Origin: an uncultured Eubacteriales bacterium
GTDB taxonomy: Bacteria; Acidobacteriota; Aminicenantia; Aminicenantales; Aminicenantaceae
Length of the DNA stretch: 64,000 nucleotides
Reading direction: 5' to 3'
NCBI GenBank assembly: GCA_964445575.1
Contig: CAYULB010000003.1
Coordinates: 12,343-76,342, forward strand
The notes beneath the pieces are model-generated. The model was not told where the DNA came from, searched no databases, and was given only the letters and a program-made list of their open reading frames with translations. Shown here in pieces: positions 4,784 through 37,955 of this stretch; position 1 is the first letter of the stretch, and the number at the start of each line of letters is the position of its first letter. Made by a program: the position numbers and the translations under genes.

Positions 4784-5947
4784 ATGTCACGTCAGATAAT
4801 TTATAAAACAGCCATAATTTTCATAATCGGAATCATAACTCTAACCGGAGGTCTCCAGCTGTACCAACACCGTCATTTTCAAACCCCCATTGTAGCGGGA
4901 CCCGGTGTTACCCAGGTAAAAAAGCTGAGTGAATATAGTCCTGATCTCAAAGGGACTATGACTGATACAAATATTTTTTTTCTTGAAGGCAAAAATCCAG
5001 GAGGAAAAATGCTGGTCATAGCAAACACCCATTCTAATGAACCGGCAGCTCTCCTGAGTTCTCTTATCTTTGTGGAAAATTCAATCGTAGAAAAAGGAAC
5101 TGTCATCATCATCCCCCAATTTAACAACAGCGGAGGCCGGAATACCCGCTCCGGTGATGGATATCCTCTTTATTTTCATATCAAAACTCAGTGGGGAAAT
5201 AAAAAATTCCGCATGGGCAACCGGGTGGCTTCACCCTTAGACCAATGGCCGGATCCGGATGTTTATGTCCATTATCCAGATAGACAGCTCCTCTCTTACT
5301 TAGATATTAGAAACACCAACCGCACCTGGCCGGGTAGACCAAACGGTGCCCTTATGGAAAAAGTAACCTTTGCCTGTATGGAACTTATTAGAAAAGAAAA
5401 CATTGACCTGGTCATAGATATCCATGGTGCAGAAACCATGTTTCCTGTTACAAATTGTATTGTGGCCCCTGAAAAATCTATGAGGATTGCTACCATGACA
5501 TCATTAACACTCAAAGCAAGAGAAGGATTTGATAATCATGTGGAGCCCTCCCCTAGGGGATTTCGAGGATTATCTCATAGAGAGATCGGGGATTTCTCTG
5601 ATGCCCTCCCTTTTCTCCTCGAAGCCCCTATCCCCTTTTTAGATCAGCCCACAGGCCCTAAAACCGTTGATCTTCTCCTAGAGGGAAAAGACCCTTTTCT
5701 TTTAAGGTTATCAAAAAAAGGTATGCTTTTTGTTCCCTATGACGAAAACGGGTGGTCCATGGCGAAACGAGTCGGTCAGCACTGTTCTGCTGTCCTTGAA
5801 ATCGCTGAACAATATTCACAAAAAAATTCGGATAGGGCTATAAAAATTTCTCATGCTCCCCGTTACGCAGAAGTGGTTAAAAATGGAGTTGGATTTTATT
5901 ATAAAGACCCTTCCAAAACAAATAAAAAAAATGTATTTTGTAATTAA
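4784..5947 (+). CDS. AstE/AspA-family (succinylglutamate desuccinylase/aspartoacylase-like) zinc hydrolase, membrane-anchored
   Basis: N-terminal TM helix. GGKMLVIANTHSNEPAA resembles the GG.HGNE zinc-binding motif of the AstE_AspA family. 387 aa. Confidence 0.4.
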   Translation: MSRQIIYKTAIIFIIGIITLTGGLQLYQHRHFQTPIVAGPGVTQVKKLSEYSPDLKGTMTDTNIFFLEGKNPGGKMLVIANTHSNEPAALLSSLIFVENSIVEKGTVIIIPQFNNSGGRNTRSGDGYPLYFHIKTQWGNKKFRMGNRVASPLDQWPDPDVYVHYPDRQLLSYLDIRNTNRTWPGRPNGALMEKVTFACMELIRKENIDLVIDIHGAETMFPVTNCIVAPEKSMRIATMTSLTLKAREGFDNHVEPSPRGFRGLSHREIGDFSDALPFLLEAPIPFLDQPTGPKTVDLLLEGKDPFLLRLSKKGMLFVPYDENGWSMAKRVGQHCSAVLEIAEQYSQKNSDRAIKISHAPRYAEVVKNGVGFYYKDPSKTNKKNVFCN

Positions 5948-30103: not shown

Positions 30104-30808
30104 TCATATTCCATAAGGAATGTCCTGTTCCAAACGGATTTTAAGTAAAAAGATGGTGTCTTTTTTTAGATTGTTCTTTGCCCAAACTTTCTGTTTTTCA
30201 TCCAAAAGTTCGCCCATACCGGAAAGAATATTTTGTTCGCTAAGGGAACCAACGAATTCAATACATTTTGCAAGATAGTTAGCAAAATTCAACTTTGTTC
30301 TTTTCTCCACAATTTCTTTATTGATCGGCCAGTGATTTTTCAAAAAATACCAGACATCGTAGACATCCCGATGAGCTGTCCTGGAACGTTCCAGCATGGC
30401 TACCAGCTTATGTGCGAATATATCCTCTTTAATCATTACCACCATGGATATACCAAGATAATTTTGGACCTCATACCGGGAGCCAAAACTCCTTCGGTTC
30501 ATTTCGATTTTAATATTGGGCGCTTTTTTTTCATAGGAAACAATGAAGAATAAAGTGTTATACTTTTGATACTTTTCCTTAATGGTCCCGTATTCTTGAA
30601 GAATTTTTTCCAATCTCTCGAAAACAATAGCGTTTTCTTCTTTTTTTAAAAGATCAAAATCAAGATCTACTGAAAAACGGCCGAGATTGTAAAATAAATG
30701 AGCAGCTGTTCCTCCTTTAAGTCCTAAAAAAGGGCCAAGGGAGGTATCTGTGTATATATCTTTTAGAATCTGAAGCAGTATTGATTTATGAATATTTCGA
30801 TCAAGCAT
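30104..30808 (-). CDS. AbiEii/AbiGii-family nucleotidyltransferase toxin (type IV TA)
   Basis: N-terminal LGPFLGLKGGTAAHLFYNLGRFSVDLDFD nucleotidyltransferase motif typical of DUF1814/AbiEii. Confidence 0.7.
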   Translation of the reverse strand: MLDRNIHKSILLQILKDIYTDTSLGPFLGLKGGTAAHLFYNLGRFSVDLDFDLLKKEENAIVFERLEKILQEYGTIKEKYQKYNTLFFIVSYEKKAPNIKIEMNRRSFGSRYEVQNYLGISMVVMIKEDIFAHKLVAMLERSRTAHRDVYDVWYFLKNHWPINKEIVEKRTKLNFANYLAKCIEFVGSLSEQNILSGMGELLDEKQKVWAKNNLKKDTIFLLKIRLEQDIPYGI

Positions 30809-30810
30809 TT

Positions 30811-31389
30811 TTAAGCCATTTCACAATATGACATCAATCTTTTTTCCATTGCCTTGTTTTTATAGATAGAAATCATTTCAAAACATCTATCCCAATCTAT
30901 TGAAGACAGGTTGTCAAAATAATAATTCCTACTTAAATAGACAGTGTCTAAAAAGGCTCTTTCTCGGGATGCTGTGAAATAATTGTTTTTTCTCTCCAAT
31001 CCAAGAGAATTTGTTAAAATCGCATCTTTTATTTTTCGAAAAACATATCTTTGGCCGTCACAAGTAATCTCTCGCGTTAGGTAACTCACCACAAATATTT
31101 GGTCATAGTGCTGGAAAACAATACCTTCTCTAGATAAAACAGTTTCAAGGCTGATATAGGAAGGAGTGTATATTTTATTGGCCAGTTCCAGACGGTCATA
31201 ATTTCTATCCTTAGCATAAATGCCTTTTCGGATAGAATAGAGCTCTTTGTTTTTTACATAGTAGTTGATGCGTCTTTTGAGAAGAGCAACATTGGTTTCT
31301 CCGGATGACAAGAGAATATCTTTAAATGTAAAGACTGTATTCCCTTTACGGAGAATGCTTAAAATACTGGCTTTTTCCATCGTTATCAA
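30811..31389 (-). CDS. AbiEi-family antitoxin/transcriptional regulator (type IV TA)
   Basis: Typical AbiEi N-terminus (ILSILRKGNTVFTFKDIL...LKRRINYYVKNKELYSIRKGIY). Immediately upstream of AbiEii with a 2-nt gap. Confidence 0.7.
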   Translation of the reverse strand: MITMEKASILSILRKGNTVFTFKDILLSSGETNVALLKRRINYYVKNKELYSIRKGIYAKDRNYDRLELANKIYTPSYISLETVLSREGIVFQHYDQIFVVSYLTREITCDGQRYVFRKIKDAILTNSLGLERKNNYFTASRERAFLDTVYLSRNYYFDNLSSIDWDRCFEMISIYKNKAMEKRLMSYCEMA

Positions 31390-31776: not shown

Positions 31777-33456
31777 ATGAAAAAGATATTCTTGCCTAAT
31801 AAAAGCATTTTGTCACTTGAGCAGTTTAGTCGTGTTATTGTCCTACTCGCATGCGCTATGCTGCTCTTTTTTCAGGTGGTCTGCAGAAGGCAATCTCCTC
31901 CAGATCAAAAGGAGGTCGAAGCTCAGCCAGGAGTTTCTACTCATGCCTTAGTCGGCGGCGGAGAAACCGGCGATCTGTTCCATTCTTTTCTCAAACATCA
32001 ACAAGACGGGTCGACATACAACATTCAATCCACAGCCTCCCGACTCTTACAGCAAAATGACCTTGTTCCTTTCCTCAAGCGCTTAATCAATGAAGGCGAT
32101 CGGGAAGCCCGTGCAGATGCTGCTTCGGTTCTAGCATGGGTCTCGGATCCGTCGGTTCTGGCAAGGGTCTCAAAATCCGATGTCCGCTATAAGGTCCTGA
32201 AAAAAGAGTTCCCGGATCGTTTGGCCGGCCTATCTGACGATCCTTACTGGCGTGTCCGCGCCAATGCGGCATTCGCCCTAGGCAAACTCGGATCCGGAGA
32301 CGGCGCCCCGGCTAGAACCCTGGAGAATTTGACCGAAGACAAAGATCCCCGTGTTCGCGCAGCGGCGACTTTTGCCCTTGTTGAAGCAGGGGTAAAAGGT
32401 GCTGTCCCCAGGATAGAGGCCCGCCTGGCTGACATGATACCTGACGTCCGGATTGTCGCCGCAAACGCACTGGGCGTTCTGAAAAGCACGGACGCCGTAC
32501 AATTGCTTCTCCAGGCTATGCATGATCAGCATCCTTTGGTTAGATCTGTAACCTACAGGGCACTCCAAAACATGGGCCCGGCCGCCGCGGAAGCGGTTCC
32601 AAACCTTATCGACGCCGCCTCCCGCGATTACCGTAATGAACGAGTCGCCCTCGAGGCACTCGTGAAGATCATCGGAGAAATGAAGCAGCCTCTCTCTGAT
32701 CCTGAATGGATACACGCCCTGGGTGAACGGGCCGGTGCGCTTGCCGGGCATCTTAGAGATACCCGCCGAGGCCTGCTCAGCCGCGGCCTGTCGGAATCCC
32801 TGGTAAGGATCGCGGGTTGGCTGGGACCGGAGGATCGCAAGCGTTTTATCGATGACCTCGAGCTTCTCGATACCCGAAAAGACCAGAATTTCCGAAACCT
32901 CCATTTCGTCCTGGCGGGGATGTCTCAGCCAGGTCCCTTGCGCCAACGACTTCTAAGCAAGCAGAATGAGCAGGAGCTTCTGGAGAAGCTGGACCATGAG
33001 GATTCAACGGTCCGCCGTGCGGCTGCCATCGCCCTGGCGGAAGGCCGTCCTGACACGGTAATTCCCGCATTGCTCAAGGCTCTTTCCTGTCCCGATCCCC
33101 TAGCAGGGCTGGCCGCGGCACAGTCTCTTGCTTCTTTTGGGAAGCGGTCTGTAGACGGATTGTTGATGCAATTGGACAACCCGGACACATTGGTGCGGAT
33201 CCTGGCATGTTATGGCTTGGCACGGACTTGGGCCGATGAACGGCGCCCCATGGCTGACCAGAAAGGAATAGAGACATTGAGAGTCCTAGCCGGCGATTTT
33301 GAGCAACCATTCGAGTTGCGCCAGCTCGCCTGGTGCGCATTGAACAGCATTTTGCGCGAACCCAGTCAGCTCTGTGACCCAGAAATCTTTCTTGCCAGCC
33401 TTCTGGACCGAATGGCCCTGCCGGATGAGGAACCAGCTCTCAATGACCATCAGTGA
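31777..33456 (+). CDS. Exported/membrane-anchored HEAT-repeat (PBS-lyase type) protein
   Basis: N-terminal hydrophobic segment. Many D.D..VR..AA.ALG repeats (DPYWRVRANAAFALGKLG; DPRVRAAATFALVEAG; DSTVRRAAAIALAEG). Confidence 0.7.
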   Translation: MKKIFLPNKSILSLEQFSRVIVLLACAMLLFFQVVCRRQSPPDQKEVEAQPGVSTHALVGGGETGDLFHSFLKHQQDGSTYNIQSTASRLLQQNDLVPFLKRLINEGDREARADAASVLAWVSDPSVLARVSKSDVRYKVLKKEFPDRLAGLSDDPYWRVRANAAFALGKLGSGDGAPARTLENLTEDKDPRVRAAATFALVEAGVKGAVPRIEARLADMIPDVRIVAANALGVLKSTDAVQLLLQAMHDQHPLVRSVTYRALQNMGPAAAEAVPNLIDAASRDYRNERVALEALVKIIGEMKQPLSDPEWIHALGERAGALAGHLRDTRRGLLSRGLSESLVRIAGWLGPEDRKRFIDDLELLDTRKDQNFRNLHFVLAGMSQPGPLRQRLLSKQNEQELLEKLDHEDSTVRRAAAIALAEGRPDTVIPALLKALSCPDPLAGLAAAQSLASFGKRSVDGLLMQLDNPDTLVRILACYGLARTWADERRPMADQKGIETLRVLAGDFEQPFELRQLAWCALNSILREPSQLCDPEIFLASLLDRMALPDEEPALNDHQ

Positions 33457-33468
33457 GGAGATCTAGCT

Positions 33469-34596
33469 ATGAAAAATTATCAAAGAAACAGGAAATCGAT
33501 TTTAAATCCAAAGGCCTGCCGTTATACGGCTTTGTTATTCGCGGGCGTTATGTTACTTGTGTCCATCGGTCACATCAGCGCCGAGAAGCTCCTTTTCCTG
33601 ACCTCCCTAGGTGGAGCCCGCGTCGCCGTGGACCATCAGATGAGGGTCTTTCCACCGCCGCCCGAGGAGGAACTGCTACTCATCATTGTGTATCCGCATC
33701 CAGACCAAGCCTTTTCCTTCGACGCTGGCAGCCCCGGGGAGCTTCGTATCGAGAGAGCCGTAGCCTTGGTCTTACCTGAAGAGTATGCCATAGAGTATGC
33801 CGACGAGATCGAGTGGTCAATCGATGACATAGGTGGGACACAGGCCGAAATCACGCCCGATCGCGGACCTGTCGTTGACATGGTCTTTCGAGGTCTTCCA
33901 GATCAAAACGATGACTTCGGAGAGAAGCGAATCACCGCGGCCGTCAGGGGCGTTTCTGACAGCGTCACCGTCCGGGCTTTCTTCGATCCACAGGCACAAA
34001 ACCATCCTGGAGGCGATAGTGAGCCGAACTGGTTTTATTATTGGAAGCAGATTGACAGCATTATTGGTGATCGTGATCGAAGCAGGTTAAGATACGAAGC
34101 TGGATTACAAGGTGAGGGAGGAGCACTGGTCACAGGCCAGTATAGATTTCCGCCTGATATCGTCATTCTTTCCGATGCCATTCTCAGTGCGAGCTGTGCT
34201 CAACGTATGATACCGACACGCCCTGGGCCGGGGCCGCACACATATGTTCCCACAGGCGTAAATGCGACAGGCATAGATTGTTTTGCAGAATCTGTTTGGC
34301 ACGAATGGCAGCATCGAGAGGACATGTTTAATTGGTGGGGATCCAGACTCAACTATGCGGTGAAACGAAACCTTTGGGAAGATTATGAAGACAAAGACAA
34401 CGATGATGTTCCACGCCACTATGAAGAGGCTGTGGGTTGGAGTGACAATTTCCCCCGTTGTAGCCCGAGTAGACCCTATCCCATTGTGAAGGATAATGAA
34501 TCTTATTCTTACTGGACAGGCTGGTTGTGGCAAATTAGTGCAGCCGATCACCAGGACTGGTCGCGGGACGGGAAACAGTGGCCAAGTGGCCAGTAA
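33469..34596 (+). CDS. Membrane-anchored hypothetical protein with HExxH (HEWQH) zincin-like motif
   Basis: N-terminal TM (YTALLFAGVMLLVSIGHI). SVWHEWQHRED motif followed by acidic stretch. 375 aa. Confidence 0.5.
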   Translation: MKNYQRNRKSILNPKACRYTALLFAGVMLLVSIGHISAEKLLFLTSLGGARVAVDHQMRVFPPPPEEELLLIIVYPHPDQAFSFDAGSPGELRIERAVALVLPEEYAIEYADEIEWSIDDIGGTQAEITPDRGPVVDMVFRGLPDQNDDFGEKRITAAVRGVSDSVTVRAFFDPQAQNHPGGDSEPNWFYYWKQIDSIIGDRDRSRLRYEAGLQGEGGALVTGQYRFPPDIVILSDAILSASCAQRMIPTRPGPGPHTYVPTGVNATGIDCFAESVWHEWQHREDMFNWWGSRLNYAVKRNLWEDYEDKDNDDVPRHYEEAVGWSDNFPRCSPSRPYPIVKDNESYSYWTGWLWQISAADHQDWSRDGKQWPSGQ

Positions 34597-34606
34597 TCGA
34601 AAACAG

Positions 34607-36532
34607 GTGAACCGGAAGAACAGCGGAGAATTGTGGCCGGCTCTTCTTGCCGGTGTTTGCCTTTTCGTCCCCCTGGTTTTTGATCCCCGGGGCCACCTTC
34701 CGTTCTTTCCGCCCAAGGAAGCCGTCCTTCTCTTCGGCGTTTCCCTGGCGGCGGCTGCCGTGGTCATCTGCAGGCTCCGGAGTAATAGCGCTTCAAGGAT
34801 TTTTTCCGCAACCCGGCTGCGACCTGACGTCACCATTCTTCTCCTGATGGCTTTGTTCTGGATCTGGAGCATCGCGGCCCCCTTGATGAAGATGGAGTCG
34901 GCAGCCGTTCACCTTCGGGGCACCATAAGGCTCACCGCGCTGGTCGCACTGGCCTTAGGTGCTGCGGCTGCAGCCGCAGCCGATCCGCGTTGGAGGGAAC
35001 GTTTTGCAACAGTAGCCGCCCTTCCCGCGATCGTCATGGCGTTACATGCCCTGTTTCAGGCAGCGGGATGCGATCCGCTTAACATCTTTGGGTACGAGCT
35101 GTCCGATCTGAAAGGAAGGTGGCGTGTCTTCACCACCACGGGCAATCCCAACTGGACAGCCGGCTATCTGGCAGCTACGTCGCCGCTTCTGGCTTGGGTG
35201 GTCCACCGCGCCATATGGTTCAGGAAACCTTGCTTGGCGTGGATTGCGCAGGCATCCGTCTGGTCAATTCTGACTGCAGCGGTGCTGACAACCGGATCAC
35301 GTCTGGGCCTGGCGGCGCTACTAGCCTCCGCTTTCTTGTGGTGGCAACATTTTAGATTTTCCTCGCTCTTCAGGAGGATAGGGACATTTATTGCCTGTAG
35401 TGCCCTTGCCGTCCTGATCGGGGTTGTGTCGGGATTTATTACTGCAGAACGCTTAACAGACAAGGCTTCAGTGGCGGGTCGCCTGATCTACGCACGAGCG
35501 GCGTGGGTCCTGATGGCAGACGCTCCGGTTACAGGCAGGGGGCTCGACCAATCAGGGCGGCTCCTTCCGAATGGCTTAGGTGAAGTCGTACCCCGACTTG
35601 GGCCGGGATGGACACCATGGATTCCAAAGACCCTTCTCGCTCGTGTGCCGAACGGCCTGCTTGAAACTACCATCGAGTCAGGCATAGTGGGTACGGCGCT
35701 TCTACTGGCCCTCTGGGCAATGGGACTGCACCGTGCGCTCTCCCGCAGCCGTGCCTGGAAAGGAGACCTTGTCCCTCTCGAAGCAGCCCTTGCCGGCGTT
35801 CTTGCCGCAACGGCAGTGTTGGCAATTGGGGACACACCTCTTCATAACCCCAACTTGGCGGTCTCTTTCTGGATGGTGGTGGGACTTTTAGCCGGTGGAG
35901 CTATCCGAGAGCAGATCAAGGCGCCGACCGTCACCGCTGAAGCGAATAGGTCATGGTCAGGGCGGGTTTTATATTTAGTACTAGCCGCAGCGGTACTCAT
36001 AGGCGCCTGGACCGCCGTGCGGCAGGGCTTAGTTACGCTAATCGTCAACCGTCAAGCCTACCAGGCACATGCGGCCTTCATCTATAACCGTGACGCTGAC
36101 GCGGAACGGATTTTTCGCAATATCCTGTCCCTCGATCCCACCCATCACGAATCATCTGTGGTTTTGAGCTGGTACTTGTTAGAGCAGGATCATCCACTGG
36201 AAGCGCTTGACCTGCTCGATCGCACGGAGCATTATGCTGTCTCGGCGGAAGCTTGGCTTGTCCGAGGGATTGCACTCCGTGACGCCGGCCGTCCGAAGGC
36301 CGCAGTTTCTGTGTTGGAGAATGCCGTAGCCGCAATTCCTGACCTTATGCGTGCCCACATCCTGCTCGGTGATATTTACGACGAGTTGGGTGACGCCCAG
36401 AGGGCAATGGAAGCTTACCGTCTTGTTCTGGAGAGCCCTCAAAATTCACCTGAGGCCCTCGCCTGGAAGGTACGCGTGCAGAAAAAGCTTTCCTGGCTCG
36501 ACTCCTGGGAAGAGCTGGATTTCAATTGGTAA
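34607..36532 (+). CDS. Wzy_C/O-antigen-ligase-like polytopic membrane protein with C-terminal TPR repeats
   Basis: About 10 TM helices with large periplasmic loop typical of Wzy_C (WaaL/PglL superfamily). C-terminal TPR-like repeats. Start is uncertain (GTG at 34607; ORF track 34496 overlaps the upstream gene). Confidence 0.65.
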   Translation: MNRKNSGELWPALLAGVCLFVPLVFDPRGHLPFFPPKEAVLLFGVSLAAAAVVICRLRSNSASRIFSATRLRPDVTILLLMALFWIWSIAAPLMKMESAAVHLRGTIRLTALVALALGAAAAAAADPRWRERFATVAALPAIVMALHALFQAAGCDPLNIFGYELSDLKGRWRVFTTTGNPNWTAGYLAATSPLLAWVVHRAIWFRKPCLAWIAQASVWSILTAAVLTTGSRLGLAALLASAFLWWQHFRFSSLFRRIGTFIACSALAVLIGVVSGFITAERLTDKASVAGRLIYARAAWVLMADAPVTGRGLDQSGRLLPNGLGEVVPRLGPGWTPWIPKTLLARVPNGLLETTIESGIVGTALLLALWAMGLHRALSRSRAWKGDLVPLEAALAGVLAATAVLAIGDTPLHNPNLAVSFWMVVGLLAGGAIREQIKAPTVTAEANRSWSGRVLYLVLAAAVLIGAWTAVRQGLVTLIVNRQAYQAHAAFIYNRDADAERIFRNILSLDPTHHESSVVLSWYLLEQDHPLEALDLLDRTEHYAVSAEAWLVRGIALRDAGRPKAAVSVLENAVAAIPDLMRAHILLGDIYDELGDAQRAMEAYRLVLESPQNSPEALAWKVRVQKKLSWLDSWEELDFNW

Positions 36533-37026
36533 TTAGGGGGTAATTAGGGGGTCGCACCGTGCTATTTCAATTGCTTTAAAACAATCATGCGGACCGATAT
36601 GCCTATTTTTCAACAAGGACGATATCTTTTCCTGACCTCTTTGTTATATTCAAATACAAACTTTCGACCCACATCTTTCGACTCATCTTTCCCCAATTTT
36701 CCAGCACTATACAGCTGTCTTGACTTCTTTGCGCAGGTCCGTAAGCCTATTATTAGAAAGTTCTGTGCCTCTGCTGACAGTCTGTTCTATCCACAGCAAG
36801 GGCAATGCCGCTGATCTTATGGGGATCTCTCCTCAAATTGAGCATGATGAGATGGGATTGGTTTCCCTATTTATTTGAGTGCTTGAGTGACGGCATCGTC
36901 GACGGCTCCTGAAAAAGAGATAAAATCGGAAATTCGGCTTAATTTCTTCGATAGGTGGGTTGGTGAATGTTGTTGACTTTGATATCCGGATAAATCATAA
37001 TATGAACAAGATTTGACTGGGGAAAA

Positions 37027-37320
37027 ATGAGAAAGTTAAATGAAATTAAGAGAATCCTTGCTGAAAATAAACAGGAGATCATTAATAAATTTGCAGTAAA
37101 GGAAATGGGAATTTTTGGCTCTACTCTGACTGATGAACAATCAAAAGACAGTGATATTGATATTCTGGTGGAATTTTCCAGACCTGTGGGTTTTATCCAT
37201 TTTATGAGACTGGAGAATTATCTTTCTGATTTACTGAAGATAAAGGTGGATTTAGTTACCAAGGATGCTTTAAAACCCTATATTGGTAAAATAATTCTTG
37301 AGGAAGTGGTTTATGTCTGA
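37027..37320 (+). CDS. MntA-type minimal nucleotidyltransferase antitoxin
   Basis: GIFGSTLTDEQSKDSDIDILVEF nucleotidyltransferase fold motif (GS...D.D). 97 aa. Confidence 0.7.
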   Translation: MRKLNEIKRILAENKQEIINKFAVKEMGIFGSTLTDEQSKDSDIDILVEFSRPVGFIHFMRLENYLSDLLKIKVDLVTKDALKPYIGKIILEEVVYV

Positions 37321-37501
37321 TCAGAGGAAGAGAGAATTCCGCGACTATATCAATGATATTCTTGAAGCCACACATAATATCCATGAATTCACTCAGACTG
37401 AGGTCAGGAAAACCTTTCGTGAACTTTCTGTCAAACACAGGTATAAGAAAACTTCCTCCGTGGTCCTCAATAGAAAGATTTATCTCCTGTGGGAGAGATG
37501 A
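37298..37501 (+). CDS. HepT (DUF86/HEPN)-like toxin, probably truncated
   Basis: Overlaps MNT stop. N-terminus DYINDILEATHNIHEF is DUF86-like. Only 67 aa. R-x5-H-x-Y (RELSVKHRY) present but IGEA-like block absent. Confidence 0.3.
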   Translation: MRKWFMSDQRKREFRDYINDILEATHNIHEFTQTEVRKTFRELSVKHRYKKTSSVVLNRKIYLLWER

Positions 37502-37955
37502 CAATAATAAGAGTATTTCTTTAAAATCAATGATCCCTTTTCCTATCTGGCAGGGAAATGACTCTAATCCTTTAGAGTTTAAAAAAATTCCTCCATCTTT
37601 AATATGGGTTGACACAACCCAAGGAAGGATTCTTCTCACAGCTTGAATGAGTTCTTCGAGCATGGTAAGTAAATTCATGGTATCAAGACATATCCATAGG
37701 AATGTGCTGGGCTCCTCCCCATTCAATGTAAAGTTCTTTATCAGCCGCATAGTCAGCCAGTTCTTTTAAATAAGAATCACCCACTTGTTTATGGTCTTTA
37801 GAAGACAATCCAGAAAACTGAACTCCTTGGGCATGGTTCTCCACAGCCCATGTCAATGTTTCCATGGGAGTCAGCCCTAAAGGAAAAAGTCCATAATTGT
37901 CTATTCCTAATTTAAACTTCTTCTTTCTCTTTTCTTCACTCACTTTACTCACCAA
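37459..37955 (-). pseudogene. Xylose-isomerase-like TIM-barrel (sugar phosphate isomerase/epimerase) gene remnant, frameshifted and truncated
   Basis: Two overlapping ORFs: KLGIDNYGL...AVENHAQGVQF (N-terminus) and LWICLDTMNLL...VVSTHIKDG...GIIDFKEIL...SIEDHGG (C-terminal part). Middle missing. The 3' end runs antisense into the MNT/HepT genes. Confidence 0.55.

Follow-up and report, generated by a model that had tools for sequence, protein, structure and literature searches.

A conserved HEAT-repeat, HExxH and Wzy_C/TPR gene trio in a high-GC block: a candidate envelope module

A conserved gene trio within a high-GC block

This study concerns a 64,000-nucleotide (nt) stretch of contig CAYULB010000003.1, from an uncultured Aminicenantaceae bacterium (hereafter the window), in which three adjacent genes, g1, g2 and g3, encode a HEAT-repeat protein, a secreted protein with an HExxH motif, and a Wzy_C-superfamily membrane protein with tetratricopeptide repeats (TPR). 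We found that the trio is a real conserved unit: the order HEAT, g2-like, Wzy_C/TPR is present in the window and in four further independent loci (L004, L005, L091 and L173/L174), where protein identity to the window trio ranges from 37 to 70%. Since trio-type g3, judged from alignments, lacks the catalytic histidine of WaaL and PglL ligases, the trio is probably a new envelope module rather than a standard glycan ligase. Neither the trio nor the g2 domain matched any description in the profile libraries or papers searched, and the literature search found no described HEAT/HExxH/Wzy_C system, in line with an earlier, sequence-only reading of the window that had not recognized the trio.

The three genes are co-directional open reading frames (ORFs) on the + strand that fill a 4.7-kb block, as the sequence-only reading had described. 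A strong Shine-Dalgarno sequence (GGAGGA) precedes the ATG of g1 (31777–33456), which encodes a 559-amino acid (aa) HEAT-repeat protein of the PBS-lyase type. The gap between g1 and g2 (33469–34596; a 375-aa secreted protein) is 12 nt, not 13 nt as first stated, and contains a second Shine-Dalgarno sequence, GAGGAG. For g3 (34607–36532), a polytopic protein with C-terminal TPR, three starts are available: GTG at 34607, GTG at 34586 (the Logan gene call) and ATG at 34496 (the longest ORF, 678 aa). The L004 ortholog starts with MNLKNIGERWP at a GTG 9 nt past the g2 stop, and its window counterpart, MNRKNSGELWP, starts at GTG 34607; by this comparison GTG 34607 is the likely start. The overlap of g2 and g3 proposed earlier would amount to 11 nt with GTG 34586, and to 101 nt only from the longest ORF, but becomes a 10-nt gap with the likelier GTG 34607.

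The closest relative of the trio lies on L004, a 5.2-kb contig from a different study, whose g1, g2 and g3 products are 70%, 57% and 70% identical to those of the window. L005, a JGI contig, and L091 encode g2-like proteins with 43% and 39% identity, respectively, and in both loci the flanking fragments align to the C-terminus of g1 and the N-terminus of g3. The L173/L174 trio (533, 362 and 661 aa) is the complete and more distant case, with 37–39% identity, and its g2-like protein carries an HEDWH motif and matches the g2 hidden Markov model (HMM) with E 5e-112. Spacing is tight throughout: the junctions of L005 and L091 and the g1–g2 junction of L173 are overlaps of 4–10 nt, and the g2–g3 gaps are 9 nt in L004, 10 nt in the window (start GTG 34607) and 33 nt in L173. 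The possibility, allowed for in the sequence-only reading, that the three genes never co-occur elsewhere is therefore ruled out. Between the window and L004, the ratio of non-synonymous to synonymous substitution rates (dN/dS, Nei-Gojobori) was 0.24 for g1, 0.28 for g2 and 0.24 for g3, values low enough to indicate that all three genes are maintained by selection.

The trio coincides with a block of foreign composition (31850–36540, no strand). The guanine-plus-cytosine (GC) content of the block is ~56% against a host background of ~38%; in the window composition profile it is 0.55–0.56 over 32–36 kb versus 0.34–0.43 in the flanks. The switch points fall at ~31850, about 75 nt inside g1, and at ~36540, at the g3 stop. 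Identical 56%/38% junctions were assembled from three runs (SRR7048228, SRR7048218 and SRR7048219; loci L001–L003), and because these are separate run assemblies, we rejected an assembly chimera. Homology to L004 at the DNA level extends over 31861–34051 and 34543–36508 with 75–76% identity. The signal peptide is encoded by the first ~28 codons of g1 (31777–31860), whose AT-rich composition resembles that of the host and which have no DNA homology to L004. That both high GC and homology begin only at 31861 suggests a recombination junction, or strong amelioration, inside the coding sequence. By contrast, L173 is an ordinary chromosomal context, where the trio has 72% GC and its flanks 67%. Given that the trio is native in a 67% GC chromosome, the window copy looks horizontally acquired from a high-GC lineage.

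Searches for the means of such a transfer were negative. No integrase or transposase is encoded in the high-GC block, no tRNA lies at its boundaries in a search of the window for mobile-element ends, a repeat search of the window for element boundaries gave short, chance-like matches only, and an Rfam scan of the window returned no RNA family. At the g3 stop codon (36530–36552), GGTAATTAGGG is tandemly duplicated, and no terminator-like hairpin follows this stop. The L004 trio is flanked by 37-nt direct repeats that are 89% identical (35–71, with the 3' copy within 5013–5133); the 3' copy lies in a hairpin with 31-nt arms that are 97% complementary (DNA-fold z = -8.9). The flanks of L004 are of lower GC (0.40–0.52), and the arrangement is cassette-like. 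The L004 repeat has no copy in the window, and its palindrome was rejected as an integron attC site as, judged by eye, it does not fit the R'/R'' consensus.

The HExxH protein, its family and its alpha-solenoid partners

The g2 protein divides into a signal peptide (residues ~1–39), an immunoglobulin (Ig)-like beta-sandwich (70–172) and an alpha/beta domain (180–375). Its N-terminus consists of a K/R-rich n-region and a hydrophobic core (18–34), followed by HISA and then EK across the apparent cleavage point. To the eye, this looks like a cleavable signal peptide and not a transmembrane anchor, and a signal-peptide-like start was seen in nearly all 152 g2 relatives inspected. The sequence-only reading was thus right about a 375-aa protein with an HEWQH motif (residues 278–282, encoded at 34300–34314 on the + strand), but probably not about its membrane anchor.

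No Pfam or NCBIfam model matched g2, and profile searches against PDB sequences and Pfam returned nothing for it, even at E<=10. Nevertheless, g2 belongs to a large family. When 1.84 billion representatives were searched exhaustively with a profile, 954 matched at E<=1e-3, of which 454 were at E<=1e-10, so the family comprises at least 954 clusters; word-indexed protein searches, with 3–4 matches per family (3 for g2), under-reported all three families of the trio. Members occur in Gemmatimonadales, Vicinamibacterales, Acidimicrobiia, Desulfobacterota, Syntrophorhabdus, Gamma-, Alpha- and Epsilonproteobacteria, Chloroflexota and Nitrospira, as well as in Thermodesulfovibrio sp. N1 and Azoarcus taiwanensis. 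At the level of phyla, the spread covers Acidobacteriota, Gemmatimonadota, Desulfobacterota, Proteobacteria, Chloroflexota, Nitrospirota and others. Some Syntrophorhabdus and deltaproteobacterial genomes carry several copies: the 80 best matches include three loci each from UBA1386 (L030, L060 and L068) and from one Syntrophorhabdus metagenome-assembled genome (L041, L075 and L080).

Of 152 family members examined, 150 have the HExxH motif. In an alignment of 100 sequences, N187, H278, E279, H282, D308, D312, D342 and D363 were invariant, and D310, E319 and several Trp residues were conserved at >=90%. An AlphaFold2 model built from this alignment reached a mean predicted local distance difference test (pLDDT) score of 88.8 and a predicted template modelling (pTM) score of 0.81; an earlier model from a 3-sequence alignment (pLDDT 30.7) was discarded. 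The model places short beta-strands at 207–261, the HExxH helix, with H278, E279 and H282, at 268–290, and a second helix at 293–307 that ends at the invariant DxDxD (D308). Zincins have the same order of elements, with the third metal ligand after the second helix. In the comparisons made, the C-terminal domain of g2 showed no similarity to a peptidase family that could be detected in sequence or fold; it represents a hitherto undescribed family that probably has a metal site. We infer the term zincin-like from this layout, and use it in that sense rather than for a demonstrated fold assignment.

The upstream partner of g2 in the trio, g1, is built from HEAT repeats: Pfam assigned HEAT_2 in four stretches (E 6.3e-38), HEAT (3.7e-22) and HEAT_PBS (5e-9), and g1 also matches AlphaRep and HEAT structures in PDB. 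Its hydropathy profile has a single hydrophobic segment, at residues 10–39. This hydrophobic N-terminus ends in a cysteine (FFQVVC) that is kept in L004 (LQAGC), and in L173 the ortholog lacks the cysteine and has a plain signal anchor. Such N-terminal segments, with or without cysteine, suggest that g1 is N-terminally anchored, via a lipid or via a membrane helix; export is here read from hydropathy and by eye. The sequence-only description of g1 as an anchored HEAT protein of the PBS-lyase type is borne out to this extent. A bilin lyase was considered and rejected, as the CpcE/F model scored far under its cut-off (41.8 vs 330).

We examined the gene context of g2 in 160 other loci of the family, drawn from species genomes and metagenomes. 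The sole recurrent neighbour was a secreted protein of 220–300 aa, whose gene directly follows the g2-like gene, in the same orientation, in 15 loci (13 distinct contigs, as two pairs are duplicates between collections). Six of the seven downstream neighbours tested with Pfam were HEAT_2/HEAT_PBS proteins, five of them at or over the cut-off. Several carry a canonical lipobox (LLGC, ITGC, VAGC or LFAC), and several of their genes overlap the stop of the g2-like gene by 4 nt. In addition, 15 of 78 long-form g2 members (>=450 aa) have N-terminal ankyrin repeats, and the others are without an assigned N-terminal domain. HEAT neighbours and ankyrin fusions together indicate that the conserved partnership is that of an HExxH domain with an alpha-solenoid.

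A Wzy_C/TPR protein with proline in place of the ligase histidine

The assignment of g3 as a polytopic Wzy_C protein with TPR, made in the sequence-only reading, was upheld by Pfam. The Wzy_C domain (PF04932; 35267–35707 on the + strand, residues 258–404 of the 678-aa ORF) matched with E 6.6e-9 and 36.2 bits (gathering score 31.7), over profile positions 5–149 of 149. At the C-terminus (36065–36499), five TPR families scored over their cut-offs (TPR_19, TPR_16, TPR_2, TPR_8 and TPR_14), the best being TPR_19 (E 2.2e-11) and TPR_16 (4e-10); matches to PDB were confined to this region. Hydropathy analysis gave ~13 transmembrane segments and, with the N-terminus inside, a K+R density of 0.26 in inside loops versus 0.115 in outside loops. 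In this topology, the 66-residue Wzy_C loop and the TPR domain are predicted to face the periplasm, on the same side as g1 and g2. 

In E. coli WaaL, R215, R288 and H338 are functionally important, and their PglL counterparts R224, R298 and H349 are conserved (PMC3643930). E. coli K-12 WaaL was included in a MAFFT alignment of g3 with its relatives. Both arginine motifs, TGSRL (R215) and GRL (R288), are kept in the window protein, in P0005, P0006 and P0007, and in P0161, the L173 ortholog; R288 aligns directly with E. coli WaaL, whereas the equivalence of R215 is by motif (LTQTRATLL vs TTGSRLGLAAL), as the MAFFT placement is poor there. By contrast, the position of H338 (HLHNEIIE in E. coli) is a proline in all three full-length trio-type g3 proteins: ARVPNGLLE in the window, where the proline codon lies at 35648–35650 on the + strand, ARVPNALLE in L004 and DQLPSELVE in L173. 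The histidine persists (AHAHND) in two paralogs, P0006 and P0007, that do not adjoin a g2-like gene. The PglL_A model (PF15864) did not match g3 at E<=0.1, and Wzy_C is absent from the precomputed Pfam domains of P0161. As far as the aligned sequences tell, trio-type g3 is therefore a member of the Wzy_C superfamily that fails a defining feature of WaaL/PglL ligases.

Further motifs are shared across the g3 family (window residues 33–44 and 417–421 of the 648-aa form). All g3 relatives show strong conservation of GNPNWT and of DPxGxxPFxPxKE, the latter in the first periplasmic loop, and a periplasmic PLHxP is found in four of the five, with PLRNP in L173.

Genes for glycan assembly were not found near the trio: glycosyltransferase, flippase (Wzx), chain-length (Wzz) and initiating-transferase genes are absent within +/-10 kb in L001, though they may lie elsewhere in the genome, and the same classes are absent within +/-9 kb in L173. 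The annotated flanks in the window/L001 and in L173 contain no cognate acceptor gene either. These absences, the change of His to Pro and the lack of a PglL_A match all weaken the earlier suggestion that a glycan is ligated to a protein or lipid acceptor. No profile search assigned the trio to a standard lipopolysaccharide or O-antigen locus, and on present evidence the trio is not a demonstrated surface-glycan system.

A related cluster without a g2-like gene was seen in L007 (6097–13040) and also in L008–L010. The L007 cluster comprises genes for a HEAT protein (598 aa), a putative lipoprotein (418 aa), a secreted protein rich in Pro and Gln (292 aa), a Wzy_C/TPR protein of the g3 family (691 aa) and a TraB/PrgY/GumN protein (E 2.3e-69). 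The 691-aa protein keeps the histidine (AHAHN). The 418-aa gene product, which has the same length as P0039, was considered as g2-like and rejected, being without HExxH and without a match to the HMM.

Possible functions of the trio and comparison with known systems

Our leading proposal, which we hold tentatively and place somewhat short of probable, is that one operon encodes an extracytoplasmic three-protein module with g2 as the enzyme, g1 as the solenoid and g3 as the platform. The catalytic part would be g2, Sec-exported and composed of an Ig-like domain and a zincin-like metal-binding domain, whose metal site would combine HExxH on one helix with the invariant Asp after the next helix. 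The anchored HEAT solenoid of g1 may hold, target or regulate g2. With ~13 transmembrane segments and a periplasmic TPR domain, g3 could act as a docking platform for g1 and g2 at the outer face of the inner membrane. Because its arginines are kept while its catalytic histidine is lost, we propose that g3 presents a substrate and does not ligate it: the arginines may still bind the head group of a polyprenyl-pyrophosphate, the TPR may dock g1 and g2, and g3 would in this way recognize or present a polyprenyl-pyrophosphate-linked or membrane-proximal substrate. The chemistry would then fall to g2, in the form of hydrolysis or processing of an envelope protein or of a lipid-linked glycan. We infer export and topology, metal binding, complex formation and the substrate of the trio from sequence, hydropathy and models. 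A more specific version, in which the His-less g3 binds a polyprenyl-pyrophosphate-linked glycan and hands it over to the solenoid-positioned, g2-type HExxH metalloenzyme, so that the catalytic step of WaaL/PglL has moved to a separate soluble enzyme, seems to us improbable.

Several observations weigh against this three-protein module. None of the 160 other g2-family loci has a neighbour of this Wzy_C/TPR family, as searched with a g3 HMM that was built from five sequences and is narrow enough for very distant Wzy_C proteins to escape it. It is in the trio subfamily alone that a Wzy_C/TPR protein is added; the link to g3 is thus a feature of one small subfamily, and could be incidental to the core role of g2. 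Furthermore, loss of the histidine is compatible with activity; Wzy polymerases, which Pfam places in this family too, are considered to depend on arginines. Lastly, it is from hydropathy and visual inspection that g1 and g2 are predicted to be exported and that g3 is assigned its topology.

One alternative is that g3 is itself active, as an O-oligosaccharyltransferase, ligase or Wzy-like polymerase, with its TPR picking the acceptor and with g1 and g2 as accessories or substrates; a glycan made elsewhere in the genome would then modify the surface. The Wzy_C score over the Pfam cut-off, the conserved equivalents of R215 and R288, the precedent for a Wzy_C protein with a C-terminal TPR, and the predicted location of g1, g2 and g3 on the same periplasmic side are all consistent with such an activity. 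However, the histidine that is essential in WaaL and conserved in PglL (PMC3643930) is proline in three of three full-length trio g3 proteins and is retained by the non-trio paralogs. The missing PglL_A match, the lack of a precomputed Wzy_C domain in P0161, the absence of glycosyltransferase, Wzx and Wzz genes near the trio in the window, L001 and L173, and the widespread pairing of g1- and g2-type proteins without a neighbour of this Wzy_C/TPR family also speak against it, and overall we regard an active g3 as unlikely.

We give the same low likelihood to the idea that g1 and g2 form a pair sufficient in itself, in which a periplasmic metalloprotease works with its adaptor or inhibitor in envelope protein quality control or processing, in the manner of BepA, with g3 a mere tether or client and no glycans involved. 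HEAT partners and ankyrin fusions do recur across phyla with no gene of this Wzy_C/TPR family alongside, the HExxH and Asp positions do not vary, and BepA, a periplasmic Zn metallopeptidase with a TPR domain, offers a precedent. On the other hand, the coupling of g2 and g3 is kept in five loci, by 4- to 11-nt overlaps or by gaps of 9, 10 and 33 nt, and this conserved tightness argues that g3 is an integral partner. Proteins of the g3 family also pair with HEAT proteins in the absence of g2, as in L007, and the protease role of g2 is itself putative.

The surroundings of the trio bear on a further alternative. Directly upstream of the block, on the - strand, is a complete pair of AbiEii (30104–30808) and AbiEi (30811–31389) genes (PADLOC, E 1.9e-76 and 4.6e-58), which we take to be of toxin-antitoxin or abortive-infection type. 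Downstream (37027–37501, + strand), a gene for a 97-aa nucleotidyltransferase (NTP_transf_2; PADLOC candidate PDC-S09, E 5.9e-32) overlaps the 62-aa ORF that comes next, which has no match, and the two are probably a toxin-antitoxin module of the MNT type. On the - strand at 37256–37955, overlapping ORF fragments of 164 aa and 90 aa look like one frameshifted gene, which may have been disrupted near an insertion hotspot; the 3' end of the 164-aa fragment overlaps the nucleotidyltransferase gene. Elsewhere, the window encodes RpoD (1676–2980), a TolB-like protein and a PASTA-type kinase, which mark the host as bacterial.

That the trio sits between AbiEi/AbiEii and PDC-S09, has a foreign composition and, in L004, is bracketed by repeats in a cassette-like manner could mean that it is toxin-immunity or defence cargo carried into a hotspot of defence and toxin-antitoxin genes, with g2 a secreted toxic hydrolase and g1 its immunity protein or inhibitor; solenoid repeat proteins are common immunity proteins. 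Nevertheless, we consider this very unlikely. Neither PADLOC nor PHROGs gave a match for g2 or g3, and PADLOC matched g1 to generic HEAT models only, so a known defence system was rejected for the trio, as was a phage-gene reading, given that the PHROGs search did not assign the trio to phage families. In addition, ankyrin repeats fused to the HExxH domain in one polypeptide do not fit an immunity role, the L173 trio lies in an ordinary chromosome of native GC, and the trio has no secretion-system or delivery domain. That the block is an assembly chimera or foreign DNA in decay that serves no function in its host, as the sharp GC switch and the 5' junction within the signal-peptide codons of g1 might suggest, is scarcely credible in view of the identical junctions in three independent run assemblies, the intact reading frames with Shine-Dalgarno sequences and a dN/dS of ~0.25 versus L004.

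The analysis defines a large, phylogenetically broad secreted family with invariant HExxH and Asp residues and recurrent alpha-solenoid partners that is without a Pfam or NCBIfam model. It also reveals a Wzy_C/TPR subgroup that lacks the ligase histidine and yet is under purifying selection, which suggests that the WaaL/Wzy scaffold can serve in a non-canonical role. Were the three-protein mechanism true, the trio would be a new envelope-processing module in which H278, E279, D308 and the Pro at the H338 position are testable residues; were the hand-over of catalysis to g2 also true, a large family of secreted proteins would gain a function. Should the mechanism fail, the g2 family would still merit definition as a domain.

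The building blocks of the trio, i.e., HEAT, TPR, Wzy_C and an HExxH hydrolase, are of familiar kinds; the trio and the g2 domain are undescribed. Like WaaL and PglL/PilO/WsfB, g3 is polytopic, with a Wzy_C domain in or around a large periplasmic loop and equivalents of R215 and R288. A C-terminal TPR motif has likewise been reported for WsfB and PglL, both predicted O-oligosaccharyltransferases (review, PMC2943079). Unlike WaaL and PglL, trio-type g3 has Pro at H338/H349, does not match PglL_A, and lacks glycan-synthesis or obvious acceptor genes nearby. The L007-type loci resemble the trio in combining HEAT and g3-family Wzy_C/TPR proteins (34–35% identical) in one co-directional cluster, but they have no g2-like gene, their g3 retains the histidine (AHAHN), and a TraB/PrgY/GumN gene lies downstream. 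Polytopic glycosyltransferases of the TMTC and PMT_2+TPR types use lipid-linked sugar donors and bind protein acceptors with lumenal or periplasmic TPR. Their likeness to g3 is one of analogy, since they have a GT-C fold and stand outside the Wzy_C superfamily.

For g2, the model resembles zincin metallopeptidases in its HExxH on a long helix after beta-strands, followed by a helix with invariant acidic residues, and differs from them in its N-terminal Ig-like domain and in lacking detectable similarity to peptidase families. BepA, a periplasmic Zn metallopeptidase, serves as a functional analogue. Like BepA, g2 is predicted to be periplasmic and may be coupled to an alpha-solenoid (HEAT, ankyrin or TPR) for docking or substrate choice. 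BepA joins an M48 peptidase to a fused TPR used for docking, whereas the solenoid of the trio is a separate protein, predicted to be anchored.

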